From contig JAQTLZ010000002.1 in NCBI GenBank assembly GCA_028714635.1, positions 9,362 through 73,361 on the forward strand: a stretch of 64,000 nt of DNA, in the 5' to 3' direction. Of this stretch, positions 28,868 to 58,697 are shown one piece after another (the first letter of the stretch is position 1; each line of letters starts with the position of its first letter). The DNA comes from Minisyncoccota bacterium. Its GTDB lineage: Bacteria > Patescibacteriota > Minisyncoccia > Phycocordibacterales > JAQTLZ01. The position numbers and the translations under genes are program-made. A model generated the notes under the pieces. The model was not told the DNA's origin. It did no database searches and saw only the letters and a program-made list of their open reading frames with translations.

Positions 28868-29164
28868 ATAGTTTCTTTTACCTACTTTCCCGAAGGAAAG
28901 CTGTGCATATTCTTTACAGAAAATGGCTTCACAGAGCCATATAACAGCGAATCACTCATTTATGCACCTCCCAAGTATACTAAGTAGGAAGTTCGGGTCA
29001 ATACCATCTGTGGATAGACATTACACGAGAAAAATGGTGGAAAAAATTGGCAAAAAGAGCAATTTTTTCGAAGAATTTCTTCTCCGTGATATACCCCGTG
29101 AGATATCAGGCACATGTTTATGTAAAAATTTGGGATTAATTATCTCATGGGGTATAGTGTCGGG

Positions 29165-31934: not shown

Positions 31935-33261
31935 GAAGCCCTCGTCCTGAAATAGTATTGCCGACAAGACACGGTGTAGAAACAGACGCCGTTCCTTTCA
32001 AATATCCGATAGGACGAGGAGGATTTACCAACCCATTCAAAGGATTTGATTGCCACAAATAAAGCCCAGGAGTCGGCGAACCTATTTTAACCAAAACTCC
32101 GTTATCGCAATGAGCGAGGGAAAGCACCGCTCCGCCAAAAGGCTTGCTTTCTGGGGAAGGCATAAAAATTGTCGAGGGAGGATTTGTTGTCCCTGTCCCT
32201 GAAGAAGAATTATTTTGCGAAGAGGATTGGCCAAGCTTTCCTAAAATATTTCCTAAAACTCCTCCCGCTAAATTCACAAGCATACCCTGAAGTCCCCCGA
32301 AAGCCCCAGATCCAGATGACCCAATCGATGAACCGAATGATCCAATGCCGCTCCCGCTACCAAGTCCGCAGGTTCCGCTTGTACAACTGCCAGTAGAAAG
32401 AGGGCAACTGCCTCCAGAGCAGGCAGAATTGGCAGGAGATTGAGAAGACATGATAAAACCGGAAGAGGTTGCTCCCATGCAAATTGGTCCTGGAGGACTC
32501 GAACCGTGAAAAAGAATGGGAAGTCCCGGTTTCCCAACAGGCTTACCACCTACTGTACAAGGCACGGGCGTGACCAAAGCCATCCCAAGAAGACATTGCC
32601 CGATTGCCACAGGAGGCCCATTCTCGTAACTTTTTGTTTTGAGCGTCCAAAGATAAAACCCCGGAGTTGGCGGACCAATTTTCACTAAAATACTTCCGTT
32701 ATCGCAACGAATCGGAGGGATGAGAATCGCTCCACCAAAAGGCCCGCCTTTGACACCGGCTGGAGAAGTAACTGGGGGCGTTGTCCCTGTCGCATCGGGT
32801 GGGGTGGTAGGAGGAGAAGTTGTCGGTGGAGTGGGGTTAGGATTACCAGTAAGAAGAGCATTCTTTCTTTCCTGAGTAGTTCCAGTTCTTCCGTCATCTG
32901 GGAAAGTCCCCTGGATGGGATCTTGTTCCCCGTAGCCATTCGGCTTTTGATTTCCAAAAGTCAGATTTTTTTCTCCCCCCGCGATAGTTATAACCTTCTG
33001 TAATTGCGCCGGTGATAAGTTATCGTGAAGATATTGCAGTTCTGCCAAATCTAGGTGTGAAAGGGCATTTTTTATACCACCAGCATTTTTATTTAGATAC
33101 GTATCAAGCGTTCCATTATTCTGCCTTTCTACCAACCCATCAATTATATTGTGAGAGGCTTCGGCTTTTTGAACAAAAGAAAAAAAGGCAAGAAAAAGCA
33201 GAAAAAAGACACATATCCGTTTCTTTTTAAATAACACTTTCATAAAAGCCATTGGTCTCAT
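31888..33261 (-). CDS. Secreted Gly/Ser/Thr/Pro-rich protein with two internal Cys-containing repeats (CDNG.LVKIG.PTPG.YLW). Signal peptide MKVLFKKKRICVFFLLFLAFFSF. The upstream part of the ORF-track start is ignored.
   Basis: Signal peptide, low-complexity linkers and internal repeat read from the translation. Confidence 0.5.
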   Translation of the reverse strand: MRPMAFMKVLFKKKRICVFFLLFLAFFSFVQKAEASHNIIDGLVERQNNGTLDTYLNKNAGGIKNALSHLDLAELQYLHDNLSPAQLQKVITIAGGEKNLTFGNQKPNGYGEQDPIQGTFPDDGRTGTTQERKNALLTGNPNPTPPTTSPPTTPPDATGTTPPVTSPAGVKGGPFGGAILIPPIRCDNGSILVKIGPPTPGFYLWTLKTKSYENGPPVAIGQCLLGMALVTPVPCTVGGKPVGKPGLPILFHGSSPPGPICMGATSSGFIMSSQSPANSACSGGSCPLSTGSCTSGTCGLGSGSGIGSFGSSIGSSGSGAFGGLQGMLVNLAGGVLGNILGKLGQSSSQNNSSSGTGTTNPPSTIFMPSPESKPFGGAVLSLAHCDNGVLVKIGSPTPGLYLWQSNPLNGLVNPPRPIGYLKGTASVSTPCLVGNTISGRGLLMLSMTQIVLGQTLP

Positions 33262-33352: not shown

Positions 33353-34366
33353 GTGCTATACAAACAAGCAATGAACCGACCAAGCAACAAAATTATTATT
33401 CTCCTCGTAATTGCAATCCTTGTTGTTGGCGGTGCTTTCTTTTTTAAAAATTTTGACTGGACTAAAATTCGCAATCCATTCGCTTCTAAAACGGAAACTC
33501 AAAATCAAAACCTCCAAGTCCTGGCTGAAAATGAAATAAATAAAGATAGCGACCAGGACGGGCTCAAGGATTGGGAAGAAAAACTTTGGAAAACGGATCC
33601 CAGTAGTTCTGACACCGACAAAGACGGAACTTCTGACGGGGAAGAAGTGAAAGAGGGAAGAGATCCGAAATTAGCAGGACCGAATGATAAAATTTCGAAA
33701 GATGCGGCTATTCAAAAAATTATCCAAAGCTCCGAAACAGAAAATCTCAATCCAACCGAAAAACTCTCAAGAGAATTTCTTGCGCAATATTTAGGAACGA
33801 ATCCGTCAGGAGGAACTCTCACTGATGCGGAAAAAAATGCGCTCATCGGTAACTTAACAGCAGAGAGTATTACTCCATTTACCTACAAGCGTCACAGCGC
33901 ATCTGAACTCAAAGTACTTCCGGATGGAAGCGCAGAGACAATCAGAGCTTACGGAAATATTCTTGGAAAAATTATCGTTCTGAATACCAAAATAAAATTG
34001 GAAAGCGAAACGACAATACTCCAATCAGCTCTCGCGGGAGAGGACAAAGAAAAACTAAAAGAGCTCGACCCAATCATCGCTCGGTATACCACAATAGTAA
34101 GTCAGGGAATGAAAATATCCGTTCCGCCGACAGCCGCAGAACTTCATATTCATTTTATGAACGCCTTGACTGATTTGGCAGAGTCCGCGAGCAGGATGAA
34201 AGTCGTTTTTGAAGATCCTTTGACCACTTTGAAGAGTCTTTCGGCTTATTCCGAAGCAGAAACCGAGCTCACGACGTCAATCGCCGACCTTCAGGACTAT
34301 TTCTCAAAAAATGGCGTAGTTTTCAACAAAAACGAGTACGGTTATACCTTTCGTCCCACACAGTAA
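33353..34366 (+). CDS. Membrane-anchored exported protein with DxDxDG calcium-binding-like repeats (thrombospondin type-3-like). First gene of the T4SS-like cluster.
   Basis: N-terminal TM helix, then DSDQDGLKDWEE..DTDKDGTSDGEE. Confidence 0.45.
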   Translation: MLYKQAMNRPSNKIIILLVIAILVVGGAFFFKNFDWTKIRNPFASKTETQNQNLQVLAENEINKDSDQDGLKDWEEKLWKTDPSSSDTDKDGTSDGEEVKEGRDPKLAGPNDKISKDAAIQKIIQSSETENLNPTEKLSREFLAQYLGTNPSGGTLTDAEKNALIGNLTAESITPFTYKRHSASELKVLPDGSAETIRAYGNILGKIIVLNTKIKLESETTILQSALAGEDKEKLKELDPIIARYTTIVSQGMKISVPPTAAELHIHFMNALTDLAESASRMKVVFEDPLTTLKSLSAYSEAETELTTSIADLQDYFSKNGVVFNKNEYGYTFRPTQ

Positions 34367-34402
34367 GCACGTATAATTAAGTATGATGGTCTTCTTTTAT
34401 TC

Positions 34403-36790
34403 ATGAGAGACTCGATCAAAAAATTTCTTGCATTTACACTCTGTTTTGGGGCAATTTTCTTTGTGACGGGTTGTCTCGTTAAAGAGGTTTATGCTGATCC
34501 AGTCATAGCGATTCCTGCTAATTTTTCTTACGTTAATGTCCCTATGTGGGACAAAGGAAAACACACACTCCCGAACGGAGTAACCTATGAGGTATACAGT
34601 GGTTGTAATCATACAAGTGATGACCTCTACGGGATCTGCGGTGGTCATAACGTTATTCGAGACCTTTCAACAGGTAAATATTATGATGTTCCTAGACTTG
34701 GAACGGCCCCAGGAAGAGAAGTAGACACCCCAGAAGGTGCACCTTCAGCTCCAATTGTTGATACGAGCAACGATGCCCCAGCGCCACCACCTCCAGAGGA
34801 CAATGGTCCAGTAGACTGTTCCAGCGGTGAATGTGTCGTGTCTCCGACAAATACGAATTCGGGTTTTTCTAATACACCTCCTAATGCGGGTTTGGTGGAT
34901 AATGCGCAACAGCAAGCTCTAGAAGCCCAAATAGCTACTGCACAAGCAGAGCAAGATCTTACAGATGCGAGTAGCAAGTTAAATTACTTTCACGACCAAT
35001 ATCCTTACATTTTTGATGCCGACGGGGGCATCCAAGCAGCCGATGTCATTCAAGCAAATGAAGACATCGCCAATTACAATAGATACAATGGGACTAATAT
35101 ACCGCCCCTTTCTGCAGAATCATACGACTCGATCAGACAGCAAGATCAAGATTTTCTGAATGAATTCACTACTGCGCGCCAGAATTATGAAGCTGCATTA
35201 GATTACCAGGCAACAGCAGAACAAAACTTCAATAGCCTTGATGATTACGCGCAACCAGATTCAGCTTCGGGATCTTCCGGCTCTGGAATAACAGCTGCTG
35301 GAGGAGTAGCGGGACTTTTGACGGGATCGACAGGAACAGCAGATCCGATCGTCCAACCAATAGTCCAGCAGGGGAATGTGGAATCAGGTAAGCAAAAGGG
35401 AACAGCGGTGCCAGTCACCAACGACATTCTCGAAAAAGCTGCAGTTGGTACACACGCAAATACAACTGCTCAAGTCAAGAAAGATTTCACCCTCGACGGC
35501 ATCGCAAAAATGATCGCTGAAAGAATGGTGCATCAGATCGCTACGAGCATCGTGCAGTGGATAAATACAGGTTTCAAAGGCGCGCCCGCATTCGTGACCG
35601 ATCTCAAAGGATTTATGGAAAAAGTCGGAGATGATGTTACAGCGACCTTTATCACCAAAAGCGGGCTCCTCCAGACACCTTACGGGCCACTCATAGCCCA
35701 AGCTATCATCGGCGCGCGTACAGGAAATTTCAACCTTCAGCCAGTGTTTACAAGCGCTCTCGCGCAGGGACAAGGAGTAGTAAATCAATTTCTTGGAGGA
35801 GATTTTTATGCCGGAGGCTTGCAAGGATTCTATGACGTTTCTCAAAATTGCAATAATTACCAATGCGCAACACTGGCAGCGATAAACAGAAACAACGTAT
35901 TAGTGCAGGAAGAAGAGCACCGCAAAGAACTCGAGTATTTGGCTGGACAAGGTTTTAAGCCAAAAACAGTGTGCGATGGAAGCAAAGGTTCTCCGTGTGA
36001 CCACCAAAGCGTCGTCACTCCCGGAAGCATTCTCCGTGAAAACCTAAATCAAGCTCTTGGAAGCGATCTTATCACTCTTGAAAATGTCCACGACATCAAT
36101 GAGATTATCGGCGCTCTTATGGGCCAGCTCATAAATATGGTGACAACCAGTTCTGGAGGCTTGAGTGGAACAAGTGCGCCAACGAGAAGCAAGGTAAATA
36201 AAAACGGAACCATTTCTCAAGTTTCGTTCCTTGCTGATTTGAATAGCGGAGTAGATATCGTCACCCTCGCTCAAGCAAAAGGGCCCACTCTTGCCTTGAT
36301 TGATGAAAATCTCACAAAAGCAAAAAATCCAAACCGATTAACCCTCTTTACCGGGGCACTCGCTAAGGTGAATGAAGCGGAAAACCTCATTGGGCAGGTG
36401 AAAATCTGTTACGAAGACAAGCTCGATCCTTCATTCGATCCGCCGCTTTCAGACAGTGATAAAAATCTTGCGGGAGGAAGAATCGACTCAGCGGATACCG
36501 TTCTTTCAACTCTCATAGCACCGGTGAAAACTGCTCTCGCACATGAAATTTCGATAGTGAATACGAAAGCAAACGCTCTGCAAAAAATCCGAAACGCTCT
36601 CACAGCAGCGACTACCGTAGCAGACGCGAACACAATAATAAATACCTACAAATCCCAATATGTAAACACCGGAAATACGCTCGAGGAAGATATCCAGTCT
36701 CTGACAGGCCAAGTTGGCACAATCGAAGGTGATGCGCAGACGCAACTGGATGAGTGTGAGGCATTGGAGGGAGTCCAGAATAATCCTTAA
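34403..36790 (+). CDS. Large secreted protein (795 aa), signal peptide, Gly/Ser-rich linker, no recognisable catalytic motif
   Basis: Signal peptide MRDSIKKFLAFTLCFGAIFFVTG and a long ORF. Confidence 0.5.
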   Translation: MRDSIKKFLAFTLCFGAIFFVTGCLVKEVYADPVIAIPANFSYVNVPMWDKGKHTLPNGVTYEVYSGCNHTSDDLYGICGGHNVIRDLSTGKYYDVPRLGTAPGREVDTPEGAPSAPIVDTSNDAPAPPPPEDNGPVDCSSGECVVSPTNTNSGFSNTPPNAGLVDNAQQQALEAQIATAQAEQDLTDASSKLNYFHDQYPYIFDADGGIQAADVIQANEDIANYNRYNGTNIPPLSAESYDSIRQQDQDFLNEFTTARQNYEAALDYQATAEQNFNSLDDYAQPDSASGSSGSGITAAGGVAGLLTGSTGTADPIVQPIVQQGNVESGKQKGTAVPVTNDILEKAAVGTHANTTAQVKKDFTLDGIAKMIAERMVHQIATSIVQWINTGFKGAPAFVTDLKGFMEKVGDDVTATFITKSGLLQTPYGPLIAQAIIGARTGNFNLQPVFTSALAQGQGVVNQFLGGDFYAGGLQGFYDVSQNCNNYQCATLAAINRNNVLVQEEEHRKELEYLAGQGFKPKTVCDGSKGSPCDHQSVVTPGSILRENLNQALGSDLITLENVHDINEIIGALMGQLINMVTTSSGGLSGTSAPTRSKVNKNGTISQVSFLADLNSGVDIVTLAQAKGPTLALIDENLTKAKNPNRLTLFTGALAKVNEAENLIGQVKICYEDKLDPSFDPPLSDSDKNLAGGRIDSADTVLSTLIAPVKTALAHEISIVNTKANALQKIRNALTAATTVADANTIINTYKSQYVNTGNTLEEDIQSLTGQVGTIEGDAQTQLDECEALEGVQNNP

Positions 36791-36825
36791 CGTATAATAG
36801 AGAAGAATCGATTAAAATTTATCAA

Positions 36826-39800
36826 ATGTTCGATAGAAAAAAACAAATTCAAAAAGGAGAAGTGCTGGGACAGAAACAAAAAAATTTACTCCCGGCTTCT
36901 AAAGAGACGAGAAAAGTTTTCTCATTGATGACTATTCTATTAGTAATAGGAATAGGAATAATTTTCCCCTTAGGAGCAAGCGTCAAGGCAGACACAGTAC
37001 AAATAGGTGGGCATACGATAGAATTCAATTACAATTCAATCGGAGGTAGTTCCGCACCCTTCGATCCAAATGATCTTAATGGGCCTTATGTAGTAAACGG
37101 ACAAACGTATTTTGTCTACCAAGCTACTAAATACCGCATAACGGGCAATACAGCTGTACCAGTTGATACTGGAGACAGTACTTTTTCTCAGTCAGCCGCG
37201 CAACTTTTTGGAGCACAGATACCTTTTATAGGAAGCGGTACAGCCCAAACACTGACCCACACGGGTTGGATAAATGTTATTCAGGATGGTTTAAATGCAG
37301 AACTTGCAGCAACAAGGAAAAAATTAGCTGCCGACCAGGCAGCGGGCGATACGGTAGCCGTTAATGAAGACCAACAAAAAATAGCAGCCATAAATAGTGA
37401 CATAAAGGAAGCTGCGGGAACTGTAAACATGAACAGTGGCCAGGCCGCTCAAGCAACGGCAGATTCGAATCGGCTTATGGGTGATGTAAGCTGCACATGG
37501 AATAGTAAATTTAGTTTGGTTGCGTGTCTTAATATCGCAGCGCTCTGGGTGGGAAATCTGATCCTTAGCCTCGCCGCGCTCTTTCTCTTCATTGTAAGCA
37601 TTCTCTTTGACTACATAATCTCCGGTACAGTAGCCGGAATGGGAGGAATCATCCAGAGGGTAGGCACTATAGCAGTTGCTTGGAGAGCGGCTCGGGATAT
37701 CGCGAACGCATTTTTCATATTTATCCTTCTTTATCTCGCAATCGCTACAATTTTGGACCTTGGAGTAGAGACGAAAAAACAGGTGATACGAGTGATAGTG
37801 ATGGCGCTCCTTATCAATTTCAGTCTCTTCTTTACTAGTGTGATGATAGACGCCTCGAACCTCATCGCCACCGGTTTTTATAATGCCACACTCAAGATAG
37901 CGAAAGACACCGCTCCTCCGCCGAACGCAGGACTGACGTCAGGAATAATCGACCCAGGCTCGCGCACAGGAAGCATTTCATCTGTATTTTTAAATGCGAT
38001 GGCTCTTCAGGGAATTTATAATTACAATTCTCCGACTATTAAAAGCGGGTTAGTGGAAAGCGCCAACACAGCAGATCCGAGAAAAGAAAACGTAGGAATT
38101 CCAGACCGAATAAGCAATACCGCAGTCGCCGAAAGTAGTGGCAACAAGATTTCATTCAGCAGAATCCTCGTCACCACCATTTTCGGCACGATGGTAATGT
38201 TTACCACCGCTCTTGTATTGCTTGCTTCTATTTCACTCTTCGGAGCACGAGTGGCAACGCTTCTTGTTTGTATGGTTTTTTCTCCTATCGCATTTGCCCT
38301 TATGGCAGTTCCAGGAGATAAATACTCAGAAAAACTCTACTGGGGCAAACTGGTACCGCAACTGCTCTTTGCTCCCGTCTATATGCTATTCCTTTTTCTC
38401 ACCATACAAATTGTGAGGAGTCTCCCGCCAGGAAGTTTCTCTGCTTCAAACGATGCAAATCTCAGCAGTGAACTCGGCGCGATATTCGCAATCTTCTACA
38501 ATTATATAATCGTCAACACCCTCATTATGACCACTCTTGTCTCGGCAAATGAGATTGGAATCGAGGGAGCAAGTGCGGCAATGGAGTGGGTGCAAAAAGG
38601 GAAGGGCGCGCTCCAGAGCGTTGTGGGGAGAAATACAATCGGCTGGTGGGCACGAGGTCTTGATGAGAAATGGGCGAATACAAATGCTCCACGAGGATTT
38701 AACTGGCTTGTTGGAGGTCAAGGAATTGTCGGCTCCAAGATTCGAGGTTCGACTACCGGCTTTTTGAAAGATGCTAAATTCGGCGGAGAGAAAAGCGCTG
38801 AAGATGTTTACCACGAGGAACATGTTCTTAGGTCTGCTCAAGAGAGCAACAGAAAGAAAGACGCAGTGATCGCGGGATTAAGAAAGGGGGACAAAGACGC
38901 TGTGGAACAGGCTTGGGGCAAACTTTCCGGTTCAGAGAAGATAGAAATGCTTAAAACTAATAAGGGGCTCTTCAATCATCGCGATATGGAAATGATCGGT
39001 GAAGCAAGTACTGACCAAGATATAGAGTCAATTGATAAAAGCGACGATTTAACCCAGCAGGAAAAGGATGAATTGAAACACGGAAAATTCGACCGTCAAA
39101 TTGCTATTTCGAAATTATACAAAAATGAGCTGGATAAATACGAGGAAGCATTCTCGAACGGAGGCAGATATAACGTTGTGGACAAAAACGGAAAAGAGAC
39201 CGGAGAAGTCGTCGATTTCAGCGCGGTAAGAGGTGCGGCCAGAAATGAACTTTACGCCCAAAACATGTTAAGTATGAGAAAATGGGATAAGAAATTGGCG
39301 ACCGATATACAAAAGAGGAAGGGTCTCTCGATCAAACATATGCATCAAATCGCACCGGATCTCTTCACCGATAACAAAGACGGAAGAATTACTGAAAACA
39401 TCGACCATGGGCCGATTGAAGACGCGAGAAGGCTGGGATTCTTGAGTGTTGCAGCTGAAAGAAAATTGCGACTGGCAAAAGGAACCGCAGCTATGGACGC
39501 GACAGCTATGGCGTACGGAATTGATGTTTCGAAAAAAGACTGGAGAGAAAAAGGCATTGAAGAGAGAGGAAAACTCCTAGACGCTGTGGGCGAACACTAT
39601 GTCTATGGAGGTGAAGACGCGATGGGTGAATATTTGAGACTGCAGAGTGGTAGTTTAACCCAAGCAGAGAGAGACGAATACGCTAGGCTTCATCATGGGG
39701 ATCAAGATTATATGGCAGCCGGCGAGGAAAGATACAGGCGATGGATGAGCGGTAAAGGACCTCACGAATTCTGGCTGAACAGAGGCGCTGTCAGAAATAG

Positions 39801-40290
39801 CTCAATTCAGCGAAAGTATGCAGCGCAAGGTATTATCTCTGAAGGATTCCGAGCTGACGACGTGGATAAGGATGGTCTTATGGCGGAAAAGATGGCACGA
39901 TATACTGCGAATGCGGCCGGAAACATCACGGATGATTTTGAGCATAACGATGGACCAATCTCCGAAGCTGACGCTACCGCTATGGATTACTGGCTCAATA
40001 ACAGAGTTGGCAAAGAATGGAGAGACAATCGACTGGGACTCAAAGTGAAAAGGGATAGGGGCGGGGTATTTACAAGTGTGGACATTATGCATCCTGAAAC
40101 GATCGTGGAAAGGGCACAGATTGCATACAACTTAAATGGACCTGACGGCAATATCAGAGCAAGAAAGTATGTTACCGATGATATAAAATGGAGGGCACGA
40201 AGAACCACCGCTATGGAAGACGCCGCAGCAAGAGGAGTTCCATTTGTTCCCAACCCTGGAGATCCGAGACCTGATCCAAGAACCTATTAA
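36826..40290 (+). CDS. Giant polytopic membrane protein (1154 aa), VirB6/TrbL-like in architecture. N-terminal exported domain, about 8 TM helices in the central region, and a roughly 550-aa cytoplasmic C-terminal extension.
   Basis: Hydrophobicity pattern of the translation and its position next to a VirB4-like ATPase. Confidence 0.45.
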   Translation: MFDRKKQIQKGEVLGQKQKNLLPASKETRKVFSLMTILLVIGIGIIFPLGASVKADTVQIGGHTIEFNYNSIGGSSAPFDPNDLNGPYVVNGQTYFVYQATKYRITGNTAVPVDTGDSTFSQSAAQLFGAQIPFIGSGTAQTLTHTGWINVIQDGLNAELAATRKKLAADQAAGDTVAVNEDQQKIAAINSDIKEAAGTVNMNSGQAAQATADSNRLMGDVSCTWNSKFSLVACLNIAALWVGNLILSLAALFLFIVSILFDYIISGTVAGMGGIIQRVGTIAVAWRAARDIANAFFIFILLYLAIATILDLGVETKKQVIRVIVMALLINFSLFFTSVMIDASNLIATGFYNATLKIAKDTAPPPNAGLTSGIIDPGSRTGSISSVFLNAMALQGIYNYNSPTIKSGLVESANTADPRKENVGIPDRISNTAVAESSGNKISFSRILVTTIFGTMVMFTTALVLLASISLFGARVATLLVCMVFSPIAFALMAVPGDKYSEKLYWGKLVPQLLFAPVYMLFLFLTIQIVRSLPPGSFSASNDANLSSELGAIFAIFYNYIIVNTLIMTTLVSANEIGIEGASAAMEWVQKGKGALQSVVGRNTIGWWARGLDEKWANTNAPRGFNWLVGGQGIVGSKIRGSTTGFLKDAKFGGEKSAEDVYHEEHVLRSAQESNRKKDAVIAGLRKGDKDAVEQAWGKLSGSEKIEMLKTNKGLFNHRDMEMIGEASTDQDIESIDKSDDLTQQEKDELKHGKFDRQIAISKLYKNELDKYEEAFSNGGRYNVVDKNGKETGEVVDFSAVRGAARNELYAQNMLSMRKWDKKLATDIQKRKGLSIKHMHQIAPDLFTDNKDGRITENIDHGPIEDARRLGFLSVAAERKLRLAKGTAAMDATAMAYGIDVSKKDWREKGIEERGKLLDAVGEHYVYGGEDAMGEYLRLQSGSLTQAERDEYARLHHGDQDYMAAGEERYRRWMSGKGPHEFWLNRGAVRNSSIQRKYAAQGIISEGFRADDVDKDGLMAEKMARYTANAAGNITDDFEHNDGPISEADATAMDYWLNNRVGKEWRDNRLGLKVKRDRGGVFTSVDIMHPETIVERAQIAYNLNGPDGNIRARKYVTDDIKWRARRTTAMEDAAARGVPFVPNPGDPRPDPRTY

Positions 40291-40299
40291 GCAAATACT

Positions 40300-41046
40300 A
40301 TGATTATCTATCTAGACCACCAAATCGACGCTTTGGCCGAAATAACCAAAGACAATACAGTAACTAAAGTCGCTTTTAAAGATACTGATTGGGTTTCTGT
40401 CATCCGGGAGATTGGAGTAAAGAATGATCTGAATTTGAGCCAACTTGGAGTGATATACGATCTCATTAACCAGATCATTCTTGGCCAGTTAAATGCCGGC
40501 GACTTCACAGGAAAACTAAAAAAAATAGCGAAGGATGAGGATTGGGATGAGCTCGACGACGGAAAAATCTCTTCAGTTGTGTCTGCACTGAATGAGAAAA
40601 TTTTCCTCCCTATCCGAGACGCGATGAGGAAATTGAGCGGAACAAAACAAGAAGAAGATGTCTCGGCTCTAAAAAAAGAAGACGTGCTTCACGGAATCGA
40701 AAATCCAGTAAAGACAGCTCACTTATTGTCAGTCGAAAAAACACCGGTTCCTCCTGCGGTGATCAAACTCACTCCCGCAACACCAACACCCGCAGTAACG
40801 CCCTCTCAACCGCCCGTGCCAACCCCGCAACCACCTCAACCAACTCCACCGCCAATTGTTAAGCCAACTTCCATCGAAATAAAACCTCATATGGACATTA
40901 TGGAAGCAAAACTTTCAAGTGCTGTGAAAATGCCTGTCACCGAAGTAAAAGTGGCCGAAAAACCCCCGGTAACTCCCGCACCACCTCGACCTGCTGCACC
41001 CACAAAATACACAACTGATCCTTATCGAGAACCGCCAAAAGCTTAA
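40300..41046 (+). CDS. Hypothetical protein with Pro/Thr-rich C-terminal half
   Basis: ORF within the cluster. Confidence 0.4.
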   Translation: MIIYLDHQIDALAEITKDNTVTKVAFKDTDWVSVIREIGVKNDLNLSQLGVIYDLINQIILGQLNAGDFTGKLKKIAKDEDWDELDDGKISSVVSALNEKIFLPIRDAMRKLSGTKQEEDVSALKKEDVLHGIENPVKTAHLLSVEKTPVPPAVIKLTPATPTPAVTPSQPPVPTPQPPQPTPPPIVKPTSIEIKPHMDIMEAKLSSAVKMPVTEVKVAEKPPVTPAPPRPAAPTKYTTDPYREPPKA

Positions 41047-41058
41047 AAACGAACAACT

Positions 41059-41511
41059 ATGCAATTCCAAGTCCCTCAATTCATCGAAATAGAAGACAAA
41101 GTTTTCGGGCCTCTTACCGTCAAACAATTTCTCTATCTTGCCGGAGGAGCCGGGTTTTCGTATCTTCTATATGCTTTTCTGCCTTCTTACATATCTTATG
41201 CTCTCATGTTGCTTGTCGCTGGTTTTTCACTCGCTCTCGCTTTCTACAAAGTGAACGAAAAGCCTTTTATCCTTATTGTCGAAGCCGCTTTTAATTATCT
41301 TTTCAGCAAAAAACTCTACATCTGGAAAAGACAGGACAAAAAAATCGAAAAGAAGGAGGAAGTTGAAACCTCACAGCCGACACTTCGGGTTCCTAAACTC
41401 TCTGATAGCAAGCTAAGCGATCTCTCTTGGAGCCTTGATATAAACGAGAGGGAAAAGGGTACCATCTATTCAAAAGAGACAAAAACACTCGGAAGAAGAG
41501 AAGATCGCTGA
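41059..41511 (+). CDS. Small two-TM membrane protein, VirB3/PrgI/TcpE-like candidate
   Basis: VFGPLTVKQFLYLAGGAGFSYLLYAF...LMLLVAGFSLALAFY. It sits directly upstream of the VirB4-like genes, as VirB3/ConD homologs do. Confidence 0.4.
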   Translation: MQFQVPQFIEIEDKVFGPLTVKQFLYLAGGAGFSYLLYAFLPSYISYALMLLVAGFSLALAFYKVNEKPFILIVEAAFNYLFSKKLYIWKRQDKKIEKKEEVETSQPTLRVPKLSDSKLSDLSWSLDINEREKGTIYSKETKTLGRREDR

Positions 41512-41574
41512 TATTTAGCTGAAAAACAGATTTATCCGTTGTAACGAGTGACTTCGCCGTCTATAATGTAACCT

Positions 41575-42216
41575 ATGGCGTCTCAAACAAGCGAAGCAAC
41601 CCAAGCATTTGTACCAATAGAAGAAATTCGCGATGGAATCGTGGTGCTTAAAGATGGAGGAATGAGAACAATTCTTCTCGCCTCTTCGGTAAACTTTGCC
41701 CTCAAATCCTCTGATGAACAGGCCGGAATCATTATTCAATTTCAAAATTTTTTGAACTCTCTTGATTTTTCGGTGCAGATGTTTCTTCAATCACGAAAGT
41801 ACGATATTCGCCCATATATCGCGCTCTTGGAAGAAAGATACAAGGCCCAGACAGGGGACCTTATGAGAATTCAGACACGCGAATATATCGATTTCGTGAA
41901 AAGCTTCAGTGACAATGCCAACATTATGAAAAAAAGTTTTTTCATAATTGTCCCTTTCAATCCTTCCGTGTTGAATTCAAAAGGGGAGGGAATAATGAAA
42001 GTATTCAGGCGGGAGAAAAAAACAGAAGCAGAACTCTCAAAGAAAAGGGATTTTGAAGAAAACAGAACACAGCTCGAACAAAGAGTTGGTATTGTTTCGC
42101 AAGGGCTTGTTCGTTGCGGAGTCAAAACCATCGGACTTGGCACGGAGGAAATCGTCGAACTCTTCTACAAGATATTTAATCCAGGAGACACCGAAAAGCC
42201 GATTCATGTTGAATAA
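41575..42216 (+). CDS. VirB4 N-terminal-domain-like protein (213 aa). Possibly a split-off or duplicated N-domain of the following ATPase.
   Basis: The motif block (GIVVLKDGGMRTILLASSVNF...) is repeated at the N-terminus of the next gene (GVLELKDIIAPSALKITPRELNLGDKIVRTFFVISYP). Confidence 0.4.
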   Translation: MASQTSEATQAFVPIEEIRDGIVVLKDGGMRTILLASSVNFALKSSDEQAGIIIQFQNFLNSLDFSVQMFLQSRKYDIRPYIALLEERYKAQTGDLMRIQTREYIDFVKSFSDNANIMKKSFFIIVPFNPSVLNSKGEGIMKVFRREKKTEAELSKKRDFEENRTQLEQRVGIVSQGLVRCGVKTIGLGTEEIVELFYKIFNPGDTEKPIHVE

Positions 42217-42228
42217 TTTCAAAATAGT

Positions 42229-44052
42229 ATGGGACTTTTAAGCAACCTATTTGGAAAAAAAGAAAATACCGTGCCGAAAATTGCGCCTATTTTGCCGCAA
42301 GAGATTTATGAATCTGGAGTATTGGAACTTAAAGATATTATCGCTCCGTCCGCCCTTAAAATAACTCCGCGCGAACTGAATCTCGGAGACAAGATCGTTC
42401 GCACATTCTTCGTCATTTCCTATCCAAGATTTCTCTCTGACAGCTGGTTTTCTCCAATCATAAATCTCGATAAAGTTTTCGACATTTCAATATTCGTGCA
42501 CCCGATCGAGACTGCGAAAGTGTTGCGTACTTTCCAGAAAAAAGTTGCGGAGGTGGAAAGCCAAATATCCGGGAGACAGTCAAAAGGATTGGTGCGCGAC
42601 CCAGTGCTCGATACCGCCTATCAGGACCTTGAAGGGTTGCGGGACCGCCTCCAGCAGGCGCAGGAAAAACTTTTTGACGTCGGTCTTTATATTTCCGTTT
42701 ATGGTGAAACAAATGAGGAACTCGATAAGATAGAATCGGAGATCAAATCAATTCTCGAAGCAAAACTAGTGTATTTGAAACCGGCGCTTTTCCAGCAGGA
42801 ACAAGGCTTCAAGACCGTGCTTCCGGTAGGAGAAGATCTCTTGGAAGTGCACTCGAAATTAAATTCTTCTCCTCTTTCAAGCCTTTTTCCGTTTATCTCA
42901 TTCGACCTTTCATCCGACAAAGGAATTTTGTATGGAATAAACCGCCACAATTCAAGCCTTGTGCTTTTCGACCGATTTTCCCTTGAAAACTACAATTCAG
43001 TGACGTTTGCTAAGGCTGGTTCTGGAAAATCATACGCTTCCAAGCTTGAAATCCTTCGAACCCTTATGTTCGACGCGGATGTTTTGGTCATTGACCCGGA
43101 AAAAGAATATGAATATATGGCGGAAGCAACAGGCGGAAGATATTTCAACATTTCTCTTAATTCTGAACATCATATCAATCCGTTCGATCTGCCAGCACCT
43201 CGACCTGATGAATCAAAAGCAGACGTCTTGCGCTCGAATATTGTGAACTTGGTTGGGCTTTTCCGTCTTATGCTTGGAGGACTTTCTCCGGAAGAAGACG
43301 CTGTCATAGACCGAGCTATCACCGAAACCTACGCACTCAAAGACATCACTGCCGATTCTGATTTCTCAAACATCGAACCTCCGCTCCTATCCGACTTCGA
43401 ATTGGTTCTCGCGGGAATGGAAGGAGGGGAGTCATTGGCACAGCGACTTACCAAATTTACTAAAGGAACGTGGGCAGGGTTTATCAACAAGCCAACAAAC
43501 ATCGACATCAACAAAAAATTCGTGGTGTTTTCTCTTAGAGATATGGAAGATGAACTAAAGCCTGTGGCAATGTACATCGTCACTCACTATATCTGGAACG
43601 CTATTCGAAAAGAGCTGAAGAAACGCCTCTTGGTAATCGATGAAGCGTGGTGGATGATGAAATCCGAAGATACAGCATCATTCCTCCTTGGCCTCGCAAA
43701 ACGATGCCGAAAATATTATTTGGGACTTGCAACTATCACCCAGGACGTCGATGACTTCCTCCGCTCTCCTTATGGACTCCCGATTATCACCAACTCGTCG
43801 ATCCAAATCCTTCTCAAACAGTCCGCTTCTTCAATTGATATCCTCCAGAAAACATTCTCGCTTACTGACGAAGAAAAATATCTCCTCCTCGAATCTGATG
43901 TGGGAGAGGGAATTTTCTTTGCGGGAACAAAACATGTGGCCATAAAAATTATCGCCTCATACACTGAAGATCAAATCATCACCTCAAACCCTTCCCAGCT
44001 TCTTGCCATACAAAAAGCAAAAGAAGAGCTCGCAGGACTTGGACAGGGATAA
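42229..44052 (+). CDS. virB4: VirB4/TrbE/ConE-like type IV secretion ATPase
   Basis: Walker A FAKAGSGKSY, Walker B LLVIDEAWWMM, C-terminal ATPase core, about 600 aa. Confidence 0.75.
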   Translation: MGLLSNLFGKKENTVPKIAPILPQEIYESGVLELKDIIAPSALKITPRELNLGDKIVRTFFVISYPRFLSDSWFSPIINLDKVFDISIFVHPIETAKVLRTFQKKVAEVESQISGRQSKGLVRDPVLDTAYQDLEGLRDRLQQAQEKLFDVGLYISVYGETNEELDKIESEIKSILEAKLVYLKPALFQQEQGFKTVLPVGEDLLEVHSKLNSSPLSSLFPFISFDLSSDKGILYGINRHNSSLVLFDRFSLENYNSVTFAKAGSGKSYASKLEILRTLMFDADVLVIDPEKEYEYMAEATGGRYFNISLNSEHHINPFDLPAPRPDESKADVLRSNIVNLVGLFRLMLGGLSPEEDAVIDRAITETYALKDITADSDFSNIEPPLLSDFELVLAGMEGGESLAQRLTKFTKGTWAGFINKPTNIDINKKFVVFSLRDMEDELKPVAMYIVTHYIWNAIRKELKKRLLVIDEAWWMMKSEDTASFLLGLAKRCRKYYLGLATITQDVDDFLRSPYGLPIITNSSIQILLKQSASSIDILQKTFSLTDEEKYLLLESDVGEGIFFAGTKHVAIKIIASYTEDQIITSNPSQLLAIQKAKEELAGLGQG

Positions 44053-44081
44053 TCACTAAGTCCTATCTCACCCCACTCAAG

Positions 44082-44972
44082 ATGCTGCGAAAATTTTTTA
44101 CTCTAGCGAAGGAAGTAAGGGAAATAAAACCAAGAATCACGCCGGGAGCGGCTGCGCTTTTGATTTTTTTCGCGCTTATTATTGATTTGGTGCAATTTTT
44201 GGTCAATTTTCTTGACGAAATCCTTTTTATAGGAGTTATTCTCAACTGGCTCATTGATATAGCTGTGATTTTCGGATTCTGGCTATGGTTTCGATTCAAA
44301 AGAGTAAAATTCGTTAAAATATCAGCCGAAGGGAAATCAAGTGCCACTGGACTTATCGCGTTCATTATAACAGTTATCATTAAACTTATTCCGGTACTCA
44401 ACGCGCTTCCAGCATGGACCGCAAACGTTATGATAAATATCGGCGTTTCTTGGGTTGAAGACCTAGCTGCGCAGGATAGAAGCGGGACGCTTGCAAAAAT
44501 GTTGCCTGGCGGCAAAAAAGCACTATCACAAGGGGCAAAAAAACAAGCATTGGAAGCGAGGAGAGATGATAGGCGAAACGGAAGAGAGGGGTACACAAGA
44601 GAGGGAATGGGAAGTGGAAGTAGAGAAGAAGAAAAAGAACAACAAGCGATGCTCCCAACCAACACCCTCGATCTTTCAAATCAATCGGGAATATCTAGCG
44701 GGGGACAGGAAAGAAGACCGGAAATTCCAAGAGATGAGCCGGCAAAGCGGGTCACAGAAGAGCCTCAACGAAGAGGAGATGCTTCTTCAGAAGCAGATAG
44801 AATATGGCAAGAAAGGGATCGGACCGGCGCTATCGCTCAAGCTGACGATATCTGGAAAAGAAGAGATGAGCGAACAGCACAAGAAGAAAAAATGCTCCAA
44901 GAGAAGATGGGTGGAATGGGGAATAGACTCGATAAAATATGGGAAGAAAGGGATCGGAAAAATGGCGTTTGA
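44082..44972 (+). CDS. Polytopic membrane protein (about 4 TM) with a disordered charged C-terminal tail carrying DRIWQERDR / DDIWKRRDER / DKIWEERDRK repeats
   Basis: Hydrophobic N-terminal half and repeats in the translation. Confidence 0.45.
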   Translation: MLRKFFTLAKEVREIKPRITPGAAALLIFFALIIDLVQFLVNFLDEILFIGVILNWLIDIAVIFGFWLWFRFKRVKFVKISAEGKSSATGLIAFIITVIIKLIPVLNALPAWTANVMINIGVSWVEDLAAQDRSGTLAKMLPGGKKALSQGAKKQALEARRDDRRNGREGYTREGMGSGSREEEKEQQAMLPTNTLDLSNQSGISSGGQERRPEIPRDEPAKRVTEEPQRRGDASSEADRIWQERDRTGAIAQADDIWKRRDERTAQEEKMLQEKMGGMGNRLDKIWEERDRKNGV

Positions 44973-46062
44973 AGCCAGAGCTGTTGATAAGGTATCTTTT
45001 GACTATGGTAAAATAACAGGATACATGAAAAGCGCTCTTATACAGAAAGCCGCTACTCTTTTTCTCTCTGGACTCATCCTTTTGTGTCTTGTGTCCTTAT
45101 CTCACTTGACCGCCTCTGCAGAAATTATCGCTCCCGAAAATTCAGTCTCTCTTTCAATACAGCCCCAAAATCCCGAGCCGAATTCAGAGGTAAGTGCCAC
45201 AATTGAAGGGTATCTTTTCGATCTGCAAAAATCAAAAATTTCTTGGTCTGTGAATGGGAATATCAAGAAAACAGGTATTGGAGGAACTACTTTTTCATTC
45301 ACAACAGGCAATGCAGGAAAAACAACGAACCTAAGCGTCGTTGTTGATGCCCCCGATGGCACGCACGTAGAAAAATTACTTTCCCTTCAGGCTGCAAATG
45401 TCGATCTGGCATGGGAAGCGACTTCCTATAGCCCCCCATTTTACAAAGGAAAATCACTTTTCCCTCCTCAAGGAACGGCCAAGGTCGTGGCACTCCCGGA
45501 CCTTACCGATGCAAGTGGCAACCTTATTCCAGCTGAAAAGCTTCTCTATAAATGGACAAAGGACAGAGAAATACTGGGAGACGACTCCGGGTACGGGAAA
45601 AATATTTACACATTTACAGGAGATCTTTTCTCTCGGCCAGTTACCATAAAAGTAGAAGCGAGCACACTTGTAGGAAATCAAACAGCAGAAAAGAGCATCG
45701 TTATTTCTCCCGCAACTTTGCAGGTTGTTTTATACGAAGATGATCCGCTTTTGGGAATTACATACGAAAAATCACTTCCGGCGAGTTTCCCTCTTATTAA
45801 TCCAGAGATAAAAATGGTTGGTGTGCCATACTTTTTCAATGCAAATGATCCACTTACCTTTTCTTGGAGTATGAATGGGAGTCCTTTCACAGACGGACAA
45901 AGCGCGGACGGAAAAAGTGCGACACTCCGGCAAAACAGCCAAACAGGCACGGCAGTTATTTCTCTTGGGGTGACAAACAGCGCTTCATTTCTTCAATCTG
46001 CGGAAACGAAAAGCTCCATATTTTTGCCGACTATAACAAAGACAAATGCAACCTCAATTTAA
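44962..46062 (+). CDS. Secreted protein with signal peptide or TM anchor. Start chosen at MAFEARAV, overlapping the previous stop.
   Basis: The ORF-track ORF 44491-46062 trimmed to the first in-frame ATG after the overlap. Hydrophobic segment LFLSGLILLCLVSL. Confidence 0.45.
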   Translation: MAFEARAVDKVSFDYGKITGYMKSALIQKAATLFLSGLILLCLVSLSHLTASAEIIAPENSVSLSIQPQNPEPNSEVSATIEGYLFDLQKSKISWSVNGNIKKTGIGGTTFSFTTGNAGKTTNLSVVVDAPDGTHVEKLLSLQAANVDLAWEATSYSPPFYKGKSLFPPQGTAKVVALPDLTDASGNLIPAEKLLYKWTKDREILGDDSGYGKNIYTFTGDLFSRPVTIKVEASTLVGNQTAEKSIVISPATLQVVLYEDDPLLGITYEKSLPASFPLINPEIKMVGVPYFFNANDPLTFSWSMNGSPFTDGQSADGKSATLRQNSQTGTAVISLGVTNSASFLQSAETKSSIFLPTITKTNATSI

Positions 46063-46148
46063 AATGAATCCCGTTAGAAGCAACCCATATTTACAAATCA
46101 TGCCTAATCCAAACATTTACCAAATAATCGAAGCTAGCTTCTAACGGG

Positions 46149-47015
46149 ATGAAAACAGCAACAAAAATCTACGTATGCATCCTTTGTCTTGTTCTGTGTT
46201 TTGGCGCTACCCATAAAGCACTTGCTTTCTTTCAAGAGCAATCCTATAAATCCCTTGCGCCAATCGAGGGAGTAAATTCCCCGGGCGATGCTGTAGTGGG
46301 AGGCGTAAATCTTGCCACGTACCTCGGAGACATTTTCAAACTGGGCATCGGGCTTTGCGGAATATTCGCAGTGCTTATGATAGTCGTCGGAGGGCTTGAA
46401 TATGTGATGACCGATAAAATCGCAAGCAAGGAAGATGCGAAGACAAGGATAACTAATGCCATCATAGGTCTTCTTCTGGCTCTTTCTTCCTATGTCATCC
46501 TCTACACAATAAATCCCGCTCTGGTAAGCCTCGATTTTTTGAATTCTACTGGCGGAGGCAATGTTCCGCAAACACTTTCGGTAAATAATAGTGCCCCTGA
46601 TCAGGTGGCGACAAATCCGGTAGCACCAGCAAGCAAACCTGGGGATACTGTGACCACAAAACCAGAAACACCAGCTGCACCTAAACCACCAGCCAAGCCA
46701 AAAGATCCTGAACGAACGAGTGTATTCTGTTTTTACACAGGCAAACAGGTTCGAGGATTTGTCTCATGGATACCGTTAGACTACTACCTAAGCCCCAATA
46801 ATCCTACGAAAGAATATCGTGTGAATAATGACATTTATTATTTTCAGAATCCGACAAAAACATGCACCCCTCGTTTACCGAAAAGCCAAGCGAAAAGCCA
46901 ATGCGAAACAACAAGGACGGCGGCTATCGATGCACTTCCGTTCAATTGGGCATTCGTCCAAGCGAGCCAAGATGTTACAGCTTGTTACGACGCAACAAGT
47001 GAGTTTTACAACTAA
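46149..47015 (+). CDS. VirB2/TrbC pilin-like protein: signal peptide, two hydrophobic helices separated by a short charged loop, then a Cys-containing C-terminal extension
   Basis: MKTATKIYVCILCLVLCFGATHKALA; LGIGLCGIFAVLMIVVGGLEY; AIIGLLLALSSYVILYTI. Confidence 0.4.
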   Translation: MKTATKIYVCILCLVLCFGATHKALAFFQEQSYKSLAPIEGVNSPGDAVVGGVNLATYLGDIFKLGIGLCGIFAVLMIVVGGLEYVMTDKIASKEDAKTRITNAIIGLLLALSSYVILYTINPALVSLDFLNSTGGGNVPQTLSVNNSAPDQVATNPVAPASKPGDTVTTKPETPAAPKPPAKPKDPERTSVFCFYTGKQVRGFVSWIPLDYYLSPNNPTKEYRVNNDIYYFQNPTKTCTPRLPKSQAKSQCETTRTAAIDALPFNWAFVQASQDVTACYDATSEFYN

Positions 47016-47042
47016 AAACGGTTTTTTGCTGTTAAAAGAAAA

Positions 47043-48311
47043 ATGAACAAAAAAACACTTATTTTAATACTTCTGGCACTCATACTTCTTGTCGGAGGAG
47101 TATCGGGATATTATCTTTTTATTAAAAAAACGCAGACTATCACTCCGCCAAATAATCCCGGGCAATTTGCATTTGGAAACCAGGTGAATAATGCGGTTCC
47201 TGGTCCGGGGAATACTCCTCTCGCAACCGCGATTATAGATACTTCTGTAAATGAAGCGGCAGAGCAAAATGAAATATCTCTGCAAAAACTTGAGCCGGCA
47301 TCAATCAACAACTCGGATATCATCATCGCGATGACGGGAGGAGTTGTCTTCGACTCGGGAACTTCAACAGTCGTCCGCTATATGGAACGAGGAACCGGAC
47401 ACATTTTCGAACGCACGTTCTCGAGTTCAACACCTTTAGGGAATGCGACAGAGATTTCAAATACCACTATTCCGAGAGTGCAGGAAACACTCTGGATACC
47501 GGGAGGGGACTCTCTTCTCGTCCGCTATGCAAAGACAGATTCTGATGAAATTGATACGTTCTACGGAAAACTCATCATCGCAACATCCTCGGAAAGCGAA
47601 CCTGGCAGTATTGATGGCAATTTTCTTGACGCAAATATACTTGAGCTCATAACGGGAGGAAAAAACAAAATATTCGGTCTGGAAAATGTAGCGGGACAGG
47701 GAATTGGTTTCATTTCCAATCCTGACGGCAAAAAACAAACCACGGTATTCAAATCACCTCTCACAGAATGGATTCCTACGTGGCCAAAAGAAAGCACCGT
47801 TACCCTTACTACAAAAGCTTCCTCGCAAGCTTCAGGATTTCTCTTCTTTATAAACACCACGAATGGAAGCCAGAAAAAAATTCTGGGCGGAATCAATGGA
47901 CTTACCACGCTCACCAATCCGGACGCTTCATATATTCTTTATTCTGAGTCTCAAGGACAAGGGTTTACTTTGAACATATTCAACGTGAAAACGGGTGATA
48001 CAAACCTTGCCCCAATTCAAACTCTTCCTGAAAAATGTTTATGGAGCCATAAAGACACAGCGAGCGCCTGGTGCCTGGTTCCAAGAACCCGAACTTCCGC
48101 AACGTACCCCGATGATTGGTACCAGGGAAAGATTTCTTCTTCGGATAATATCTGGAAAATCAATGTAAAGACAGGAGAATCAGAGCTTCTCGTTTCTGTA
48201 GACAACGGCATAACCATTGATGGAATAAATCTATTTACAGACAACACTGAAGATCATCTCTTTTTCACAAACAAAAAAAATGACGTTCTCTGGTCATTTG
48301 ATTTAAGGTAG
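47043..48311 (+). CDS. Membrane-anchored exported protein (422 aa), last gene of the cluster
   Basis: N-terminal TM helix LILILLALILLVGGVSGYYLFI. Confidence 0.45.
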   Translation: MNKKTLILILLALILLVGGVSGYYLFIKKTQTITPPNNPGQFAFGNQVNNAVPGPGNTPLATAIIDTSVNEAAEQNEISLQKLEPASINNSDIIIAMTGGVVFDSGTSTVVRYMERGTGHIFERTFSSSTPLGNATEISNTTIPRVQETLWIPGGDSLLVRYAKTDSDEIDTFYGKLIIATSSESEPGSIDGNFLDANILELITGGKNKIFGLENVAGQGIGFISNPDGKKQTTVFKSPLTEWIPTWPKESTVTLTTKASSQASGFLFFINTTNGSQKKILGGINGLTTLTNPDASYILYSESQGQGFTLNIFNVKTGDTNLAPIQTLPEKCLWSHKDTASAWCLVPRTRTSATYPDDWYQGKISSSDNIWKINVKTGESELLVSVDNGITIDGINLFTDNTEDHLFFTNKKNDVLWSFDLR

Positions 48312-58149: not shown

Positions 58150-58154
58150 AATTT

Positions 58155-58685: not shown

Positions 58686-58697
58686 ATATATTCATTA

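Follow-up and report, generated by a model that had tools for sequence, protein, structure and literature searches.

A cluster of 11 co-directional genes at positions 33353-48311 of a 64,000-nucleotide stretch of DNA from a Minisyncoccota bacterium (Patescibacteriota; contig JAQTLZ010000002.1, positions 9,362-73,361; hereafter the window) very probably encodes a chromosomal type IV secretion system (T4SS) of the Patescibacteria, which lacks a relaxase and derives from the monoderm MPF_FATA conjugation machinery minus its DNA-processing half. The parts list comprises a split VirB4 motor, a PrgI/VirB3 protein, a VirB6-like protein, one VirB2-like pilin and six further conserved envelope or accessory proteins. 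This kind of system is already known, and in exactly this genomic arrangement. The original prediction, made from the letters of the DNA, had proposed a T4SS-like chromosomal machine around a VirB4 ATPase in a small-genome organism, and not a conjugative element. Every test run here supports that proposal and the published description matches it; what was rediscovered is a known, functionally unsolved machine.

A Patescibacteria-specific VirB4 clade, nested in MPF_FATA, has been found in 2,407 of 3,035 genomes (Quinonero-Coronel et al., 2025, Microb Genom, PMC12102498); the count for VirB4 in this survey is 2,417. TrsD is the most frequent associated component, with 1,664 cases next to virB4, and PrgI/VirB3, VirB6 and VirB2-like pilins are also encoded near virB4 in these bacteria; in Paceibacteria, the cluster is positioned close to dnaA, dnaN, rnpA, ksgA and rpmH (PMC12102498). 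In Southlakia epibionticum, a member of the Saccharibacteria, transposon sequencing has shown the T4SS cluster to be essential for epibiotic growth (Wang et al., 2023, Cell, PMC10633639). Reviews describe the role of the T4SS in Patescibacteria as 'completely unknown', with effector delivery or the uptake of host molecules as proposals (PMC11665869, PMC12857230).

All 11 open reading frames (ORFs) of the cluster lie on the plus strand and are intact, with junctions of -11 to +86 nucleotides (nt). NCBI calls these 11 genes (numbered g1 to g11 here) on an identical contig of 20 kb as well. Co-direction and short or overlapping junctions had been described correctly, but for twelve genes instead of 11. 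A signal peptide or transmembrane (TM) helix, said to be present in nearly all of the proteins, was found in eight of the 11 by a simple hydropathy scan, the soluble remainder being a 248-aa protein, a 213-aa protein and VirB4 itself. An alternative genetic code was ruled out, as TGA, TAG and TAA each end long conserved ORFs. The source genome is a metagenome-assembled genome (MAG) of Candidatus Pacebacteria (Parcubacteria, candidate phyla radiation), and its VirB4 protein is identical to one deposited from MAGs of that group. Scanning one genome per GTDB species yielded 80 related loci from Paceibacteria/Parcubacteria-type MAGs, with VirB4 proteins 79-85% identical. Synteny counts for individual genes refer to the 51 related loci with complete flanks, and absences to Pfam scans of every sizeable ORF of the 64-kb window.

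The split VirB4 motor and its membrane partners

The motor is a VirB4-class ATPase of 607 aa without TM helices (g7, 42229-44052, plus strand), which lacks the first ~180 residues of a full-length VirB4. It matches the NCBIfam model conju_CD1110 at 4.4e-113 (379 bits, cutoff 325) over model positions 185-733 of 752, Pfam P-loop_TraG at 3e-26, the VirB4 C-terminal domain in PDB entry 4AG5 at 3e-41 and TrwK of R388 at 9e-7 (query 155-552 on TrwK 330-735). Walker A (AKAGSGKS) was located at aa 261-268 (window 43009-43032) and Walker B (LLVIDE) at aa 467-472 (window 43627-43644). The earlier assignment to the VirB4/TrbE class is thus upheld, and with a score above the curated VirB4 cutoff the protein is not better classed as a P-loop ATPase unrelated to T4SSs. 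Homologues number more than 8000; the best 120 are 83-100% identical, 591-662 aa long and mostly from Parcubacteria/Paceibacteria MAGs. The best curated model, CD1110, is an MPF_FATA-type family. These sequence matches lend indirect support to a putative place of the protein in the Patescibacteria VirB4 clade.

Directly upstream lies a TrsD/TraC-like protein of 213 aa without TM helices (g6, 41575-42216, plus strand), the detached N-terminal part of the same VirB4. Its residues 10-125 align to positions 2-119 of 752 in the CD1110 VirB4 model and to positions 99-233 of 894 in the VirB4_plasma model; in both models, g6 and g7 cover consecutive, non-overlapping parts. The protein further matches TrsD/TraD of pGO1-type plasmids (NF041427) and has a precomputed match to the TraC-like family PF26593. 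It had been taken for a repeat of the VirB4 N-domain, which proved wrong. A comparison of g6 with g7 by BLASTP is not significant (E 0.4) and this, together with the complementary model coordinates, rules out a duplicated N-domain; moreover, g6 is a separate ORF upstream of VirB4, with its own ATG, in 79 of 79 loci. In the window, the two ORFs share a frame and are spaced by TAA and 12 nt. Because the split spans all three relative frames in the 79 loci (39, 27 and 13), this in-frame TAA is incidental, and programmed readthrough or a pseudogene at this position could be ruled out. The pair is an ancient split VirB4; it is neither duplicated nor pseudogenised, and no recoding takes place there.

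Three membrane proteins complete the recognisable core. The first is a PrgI-family protein of 150 aa with a hydrophobic hairpin, the VirB3 equivalent of Gram-positive T4SSs (g5, 41059-41511, plus strand), which matches Pfam PF12666 at 5.6e-10 (40.1 bits, cutoff 27) and is present in 51 of 51 loci. A VirB2-like T4SS pilin of 288 aa (g10, 46149-47015, plus strand) matches Pfam T4SS_pilin (PF18895) at 7.4e-7 (29.6 bits, cutoff 26.6) over aa 55-120. It has a signal peptide, TM helices at aa 62-80 and 101-119, and a C-terminal extension of ~165 aa with four Cys residues. Hidden Markov models (HMMs) built from the cluster families detected no second pilin gene in the window, nor any extra PrgI, TrsD or VirB4 paralogue.

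The third is an extended VirB6/TrbL-like polytopic membrane protein of 1154 aa (g3, 36826-40290, plus strand), so classified from the matches of its homologues and from its predicted fold. An N-terminal anchor is followed by a poorly predicted ectodomain (~aa 50-230), a TM core (~aa 230-590) and a tail of ~500 aa made up of charged alpha-helical repeats (~aa 650-1140). TrbL/VirB6 is matched by 11 of 54 homologues, and no other family recurs. The TM core is confident in the AlphaFold2 model (pLDDT about 90), for which Foldseek ranks chains of the R388 stalk complex first to third (E 0.2-0.4, non-significant); a VirB6-family sequence profile returned coiled-coil noise only from the PDB. Taken together, the homologues' TrbL matches and the modelled fold provide good evidence for a predicted VirB6-like identity.

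A small protein in the VirB3/PrgI position, a VirB6/TrbL-like polytopic protein with a huge tail and a VirB2/TrbC-like pilin candidate with a long Cys-containing extension had each been anticipated at these places, and similarity to VirB3, VirB6 and VirB2 was detected in all three cases. The view that the giant VirB6 and the VirB4 arrangement are atypical of characterised systems stands in part: the giant VirB6 and the split VirB4 are both unusual against classical systems, but recur in Patescibacteria.

No relaxase, VirD4/TcpA-type type IV coupling protein (T4CP) or VirB11 was found in the window, in agreement with the original prediction, and neither was VirB7, VirB9 or VirB10 of an outer-membrane core. 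A VirB8-like NTF2 domain was not recognised in the cluster, where the bitopic g9 and g11 give weak Ig-like and beta-propeller sequence signals only. An M23/LysM peptidase gene 4.5 kb upstream (27761-28867, minus strand) was considered as a VirB1 partner and rejected, being syntenic in just seven of the 51 loci.

Conservation of the cluster beside dnaA

The order of genes is conserved on one strand as PcrA, KsgA, g1, g2, the VirB6-like gene, an ORF at the g4 position, PrgI, TrsD, VirB4, an ORF at the g8 position (not in all loci), g9, the pilin and g11, after which follow YidC on the other strand and then DnaA and DnaN. This arrangement is maintained across 80 Paceibacteria species, so that both order and position of the cluster withstood the synteny check in relatives that had been advised. 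In the window, the origin-side genes are KsgA (31107-31934), YidC (48860-49615), DnaA (50447-51793) and DnaN (52080-53180). RnpA and L34 (rpmH) are called on the identical contig, which places the cluster between ksgA and yidC-rnpA-rpmH-dnaA; the neighbours ksgA, rnpA, rpmH, dnaA and dnaN are exactly as published for Paceibacteria (PMC12102498). A mobile-element context was ruled out. No tRNA or integrase gene flanks the cluster, the closest tRNAs and integrase-type gene (XerC/D-like, 19232-20185) being more than 13 kb away, and its GC content of 0.43-0.46 shows no departure from the rest of the window.

Conservation within the cluster follows a steep gradient. Median identity is 81.5% for VirB4, 60% for TrsD, 53% for PrgI, 40% for the pilin (core only, at 35% coverage), 33% for g11, 32% for g9, 28.5% for the VirB6-like protein (core only), 27% for g2 and 26% for g1. 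In the same loci, the neighbouring genes reach 63% (DnaA), 55% (PcrA), 54% (DnaN), 51% (KsgA) and 43% (YidC). The motor is thus better conserved than DnaA, the initiator of replication. A secretion ATPase that exceeds DnaA, DnaN, PcrA, KsgA and YidC in this respect is unusual, which argues for a core housekeeping role.

The same gradient appears at close range. Against a congener (L082), DnaA is 99.6% identical in amino acids at 88% nucleotide identity, and VirB4 is 96.9% identical at about 78%. The VirB6-like protein is 41.5% identical overall, with values of 21% for the ectodomain, 61% for the core and 28.5% for the tail; the pilin is 45.5% identical overall, with 67% in the core and 23% in the extension. 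These comparisons point to strong purifying selection on the cytoplasmic components, with VirB4 retaining 97% amino acid identity at about 78% nucleotide identity, and show that the parts predicted to be surface-exposed diverge fast, to the point of being nearly unalignable between congeners.

Accessory proteins and neighbouring genes

Directly upstream of the VirB6-like gene, and syntenic in 48 of 51 loci, is a gene for a secreted, lipoprotein-like protein of 795 aa with a signal peptide ending in a lipobox-like VTGC (g2, 34403-36790, plus strand). Its conserved helical domain (aa 335-600, window 35405-36202) defines a family that numbers 3175 cluster representatives at E<=1e-3 and whose genes always immediately precede the one for the VirB6-like protein; a word-indexed homologue search with g2 had returned four matches only. 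Sporadic members of the family match TrbJ of NCBIfam, which belongs to the VirB5 family (four of 63, best 1.2e-5), or DUF4141 (three of 63, best 2.4e-8), whose gene lies between traG and traJ in conjugative transposons of Bacteroides. Other members carry F5/8 type C lectin domains (three of 63) or Ig-like domains. The protein in the window has no TrbJ/VirB5 match itself. Its AlphaFold2 model is helical and of moderate confidence (pLDDT 70.5), and neither this model nor sequence profiles found a match in the PDB, VirB5 included. Comparisons of g2 with Rhizobium VirB5-position and Bacteroides TraI-position proteins, by HMM and hhalign, gave no match; they are uninformative, because a VirB6 positive control failed likewise. 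We regard g2 as a candidate surface or stalk component. Since no fold or profile in the PDB matches, the comparisons failed their control and the TrbJ and DUF4141 matches are sporadic, a VirB5/TrbJ-like identity is kept as an unproven hypothesis and a lead only.

The cluster opens with an N-terminally membrane-anchored secreted protein of 337 aa with one N-terminal TM helix (g1, 33353-34366, plus strand; likely true start at the ATG at 33371). It matches the calcium-binding TSP3-type repeat of Pfam (TSP3_bac, PF18884) at 5.6e-6 (26.5 bits, cutoff 25), and is found at the same position in 39 of 51 loci, the C-terminal domain being the conserved part in the family alignment.

Two further proteins occupy conserved positions with little conserved sequence. 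Between VirB6 and PrgI, where 32 loci have an ORF of 180-380 aa, the window encodes a soluble accessory protein of 248 aa without TM helices (g4, 40300-41046, plus strand), in which a Pro-rich linker joins a small N-terminal domain to a C-terminal DPYREP. It matches no family among the Pfam and NCBIfam models and nothing in the PDB. Mean column identity in the alignment of its family is 16%, but D240-P241-Y242-R243-E244 are conserved in at least 90% of the sequences, and this near-invariant end looks like a docking peptide for a partner, to judge by the motif. Downstream of VirB4, a small membrane protein of 296 aa has at least two TM helices and a charged tail with D[RK]IW[QE]ERDR repeats (g8, 44082-44972, plus strand). 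An ORF of 116-284 aa stands at its position in 29 loci, the alignment has a mean column identity of only 13%, and no family or PDB match was found.

The remaining two are N-terminally anchored extracytoplasmic proteins, both present in 51 of 51 loci (for g11, those with a complete downstream flank). The protein g9 (345-366 aa, 44962 or 45025 to 46062, plus strand) starts at the ATG at one or the other of these positions, a longer ORF from 44491 being an artefact of ORF listing. All of its Ig-type matches are weak and below curated thresholds (BiPBP_C in six of 27 members; Ig_3, PKD and TIG; phage Hoc at 0.005); they suggest that g9 probably consists of three Ig-like beta-sandwich domains. The last gene of the cluster encodes a protein of 422 aa with one TM helix and conserved Cys and Trp residues (g11, 47043-48311, plus strand). 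Weak matches to TolB (0.02) and DPPIV_N are the only ones obtained, and are consistent with what is possibly a beta-propeller.

The only sizeable gap inside the cluster core is the 63 nt between PrgI and TrsD (41512-41574). It contains the best coding-strand sigma-70-like match of the cluster (TTGTAA-17-TATAAT, 41539-41567, 10 of 12 positions); promoter and terminator sites in the scan were no commoner than in shuffled sequence.

Several observations were made on the surroundings of the cluster. Divergent from g1 is a gene for a secreted Cys/Gly/Ser/Pro-rich protein of ~456 aa (31888-33258, minus strand), which has no Pfam match and contains two copies of the module 'PFGGA[IV]L...CDNG..LVKIG.PTPG.YLW'. 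None of the 80 related loci has this gene, and the congener L082 has only a weak match to it, which makes it a lineage-specific insertion between ksgA and the T4SS. The T4SS is flanked by ComM (26193-27758), PcrA/UvrD (29147-31105) and RuvC-YebC-RuvB (57673-59726); PcrA, together with KsgA, is kept beside the cluster in 39 of 51 loci, and ComM in two of 51. A PilB-type ATPase, the motor of a type IV pilus, is encoded 12 kb downstream (60137-61813, minus strand; T2SSE, PF00437, 1.9e-117) and includes an MshEN domain. The type IV pilus is the other envelope machine known as essential in Saccharibacteria. Four paralogous TrmB-family helix-turn-helix regulators of ~245-275 aa are encoded within 17 kb (4349-5086, minus strand; 11092-11916, 13186-13959 and 20724-21503, plus strand) in an otherwise minimal-looking genome. 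At the end of the window (62001-64000), GC content rises from the roughly 0.43 of the remainder to 0.546; the ORFs of this part (61975-62388 and 62570-63505) match nothing in Pfam, and Rfam families were not detected either.

Related systems, alternative readings and likely function

The closest known relatives are the T4SSs of the Patescibacteria clade, as described for Southlakia. That cluster encodes a VirB4 of 612 aa beside an unannotated protein of 293 aa, six PF18895 pilins, PrgI, an NTF2-like protein and two membrane proteins of ~1,000 aa with ARM-repeat tails, one of which is VirB6-like (Table S2 of PMC10633639). Like the Southlakia genes (SEML1_0006-0019), the cluster in the window is chromosomal and next to dnaA, has a VirB4 of ~600 aa after a separate protein in the TrsD position, encodes PrgI, a giant VirB6-like protein with a helical-repeat tail and a PF18895 pilin, and contains neither relaxase nor coupling protein; SEML1_0008/0009 and SEML1_0011/0013 display the split VirB4 and the giant tailed VirB6, too. 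It differs in having one pilin with a long Cys-containing extension in place of six short pilins, and in the lack of both a recognisable NTF2/VirB8-like protein and lysozyme/CHAP VirB1-like genes. Compared with the published Patescibacteria systems in general, it has class-specific accessory genes (g1, g2, g4, g9 and g11) that the papers leave unassigned.

Among characterised conjugation systems, the MPF_FATA type (TrsC-TrsD-TrsE of pGO1/pSK41, CD1110 of a Clostridium difficile conjugative transposon, PrgH-PrgI-PrgJ of pCF10) shares with the cluster the best VirB4 model, a TrsD-like small protein upstream of VirB4 (pGO1), a PrgI-type VirB3 and the lack of an outer-membrane core. Unlike those systems, which are carried on mobile elements, the cluster is chromosomal and vertically inherited, has no relaxase, T4CP or PrgB-type adhesin, and includes a VirB2-like pilin without counterpart in the Gram-positive systems. 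The inner-membrane complex and stalk of the R388 and Agrobacterium VirB systems (MPF_T) differ from the cluster in several points: the VirB7/VirB9/VirB10 core, VirB11 and VirD4 are missing here, VirB4 is split and the VirB6-like protein is about three times longer. The rvh T4SS of the Rickettsiales is likewise chromosomal, occurs in host-dependent bacteria with reduced genomes and has VirB6-like proteins with large hydrophilic extensions, but it is a diderm MPF_T system with VirB8-11, VirD4 and several VirB6 paralogues, in contrast to the single VirB6-like gene and monoderm architecture here. ComB of Helicobacter pylori combines VirB2-, VirB3-, VirB4- and VirB6-like parts, without VirD4, VirB11 or a relaxase, as does the cluster in the window. 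ComB also has VirB7-10 and cooperates with ComEC; no such parts were found here. It has been cited as a precedent (PMC11665869), and ComEC is dispensable in the one Patescibacterium tested (PMC12857230).

By analogy with the structural model of the R388 system, VirB2, VirB3, VirB4 and VirB6 would form the pilus-biogenesis set, and the absent T4CP and relaxase the DNA-recruitment module. With the former retained and the latter gone, the cluster most likely builds a VirB2-type filament or conduit. TrsD and VirB4 would together reconstitute the VirB4 hexameric ATPase, docked on a platform of PrgI and the VirB6-like protein at the cytoplasmic membrane. The ATPase would extract the VirB2-like pilin from the membrane and polymerise it, giving a short pilus or conduit that crosses the monoderm cell wall, and the fast-evolving exposed parts, namely the Cys domain at the C terminus of the pilin, the VirB6 ectodomain, g1, g2, g9 and g11, could provide host-specific contact. 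Most likely, the machine serves contact-dependent exchange with a host cell, and not plasmid conjugation; as far as sequence can tell, that exchange may run either way (proteins out, or DNA, nucleotides or lipids in).

A more elaborate version of this model is speculative, and we think it improbable: the cluster might encode a fuller pilus apparatus than has been reported, a host-specific contact organelle on a monoderm made of a stalk or tip (g2), a Cys-decorated pilin and the VirB6 ectodomain. Here, g2 may be a divergent stalk or tip protein of the VirB5/TrbJ type, fused in some relatives to lectin or Ig-like adhesin domains; the hypervariable, Cys-rich C-terminal domain of the single pilin may decorate the filament; and the organelle might draw material from the host instead of exporting DNA.

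Certain points weigh against the assignment to a Patescibacteria T4SS and the function proposed for it. The VirB6-like protein itself has no direct Pfam match, and its Foldseek E-values (0.2-0.4) are not significant alone. Neither a VirB8-like (NTF2) nor a VirB1-like component was recognised in the cluster. Essentiality of the T4SS is known from one Saccharibacterium only, and none of the Paceibacteria T4SSs has a demonstrated function; the pilus is deduced from gene content, and no monoderm is known to carry a pilus of the VirB2 type. The examined DNA covers 64 kb, and VirD4-like T4CP homologues of Patescibacteria are usually encoded far from virB4 (PMC12102498).

One alternative leaves the identity of the system unchanged and bears on which way transport runs: an import machine, a T4SS-derived apparatus akin to ComB or Ced for the uptake of DNA, nucleotides or other host molecules such as lipids by a cell unable to make them. 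We consider it unlikely. The likeness in gene content to ComB of H. pylori speaks for it, but equivalents of ComB7-10 are missing, and the matches of VirB4 to the archaeal DNA-import ATPases CedB (2.2e-6) and CedD (2.2e-5) score far under the respective cutoffs of 700 and 600 bits. ComM, PcrA and RuvB/RuvC lie within the window, yet synteny, examined for two of these DNA-processing neighbours, ties PcrA (39/51) but not ComM (2/51) to the cluster. To our knowledge, no T4SS imports lipids or nucleotides, which also counts against import. The T4SS has been proposed as a route of nucleotide acquisition, with competence dispensable but the T4SS essential in Southlakia (PMC11665869, PMC12857230); deletion of comEC in Southlakia had no effect on viability (PMC12857230), so any uptake role would be independent of ComEC.

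Two further readings would make the cluster a conjugative element, active or decaying. That it is a genuine conjugative or mobilising T4SS, with its relaxase, oriT and coupling protein elsewhere in the genome, is very improbable. VirB4 does pass the cutoff of a conjugal-transfer ATPase family, the inspected sequence extends to 64 kb only, and VirD4-like homologues exist in most Patescibacteria genomes, with the T4CP often encoded far from virB4 (PMC12102498). However, all 80 species share the position next to oriC, with a gene order that follows vertical descent, the borders show no integrase, att-like tRNA junction or GC shift, and VirB4 is conserved above DnaA, unlike genes of mobile elements. 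Moreover, no more than 103 of the 3,035 Patescibacteria genomes surveyed contain a relaxase, which is close to virB4 in only 15 cases, and in Southlakia the T4CP homologue is dispensable whereas the T4SS is essential (PMC12102498). A decaying integrated conjugative element, in which the stop between the 213-aa and 607-aa ORFs would be a pseudogenising mutation, is suggested by the shared frame of the two VirB4 pieces and the short spacer between them. This reading is effectively refuted by the split in 79 of 79 species, in every relative frame and with its own start codon, by the same split in Southlakia, where both genes are essential (PMC12102498, PMC10633639), and by the intact state of all 11 ORFs and the strong amino acid conservation of VirB4 at about 78% nucleotide identity. 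A relaxase-less chromosomal T4SS of the Patescibacteria thus remains the preferred explanation.

The window adds no new kind of system, and its interest rests on the unsolved function of the system and not on a peculiarity of the window. It offers a clean, fully syntenic example from the Paceibacteria and a quantitative gradient of selection, from a motor conserved above DnaA to exposed parts that are nearly unalignable between congeners. A possible, unproven addition to the published picture is that the gene upstream of VirB6 (g2) belongs to a large family with sporadic TrbJ and DUF4141 matches. Together with g1, g4, g9 and g11, it is among the conserved accessory genes that any mechanistic model for the class must explain. 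Given its wide distribution, its essentiality in the single species tested and its unsolved role, the Patescibacteria T4SS is a leading candidate for the means by which these ultrasmall epibionts make use of their hosts.

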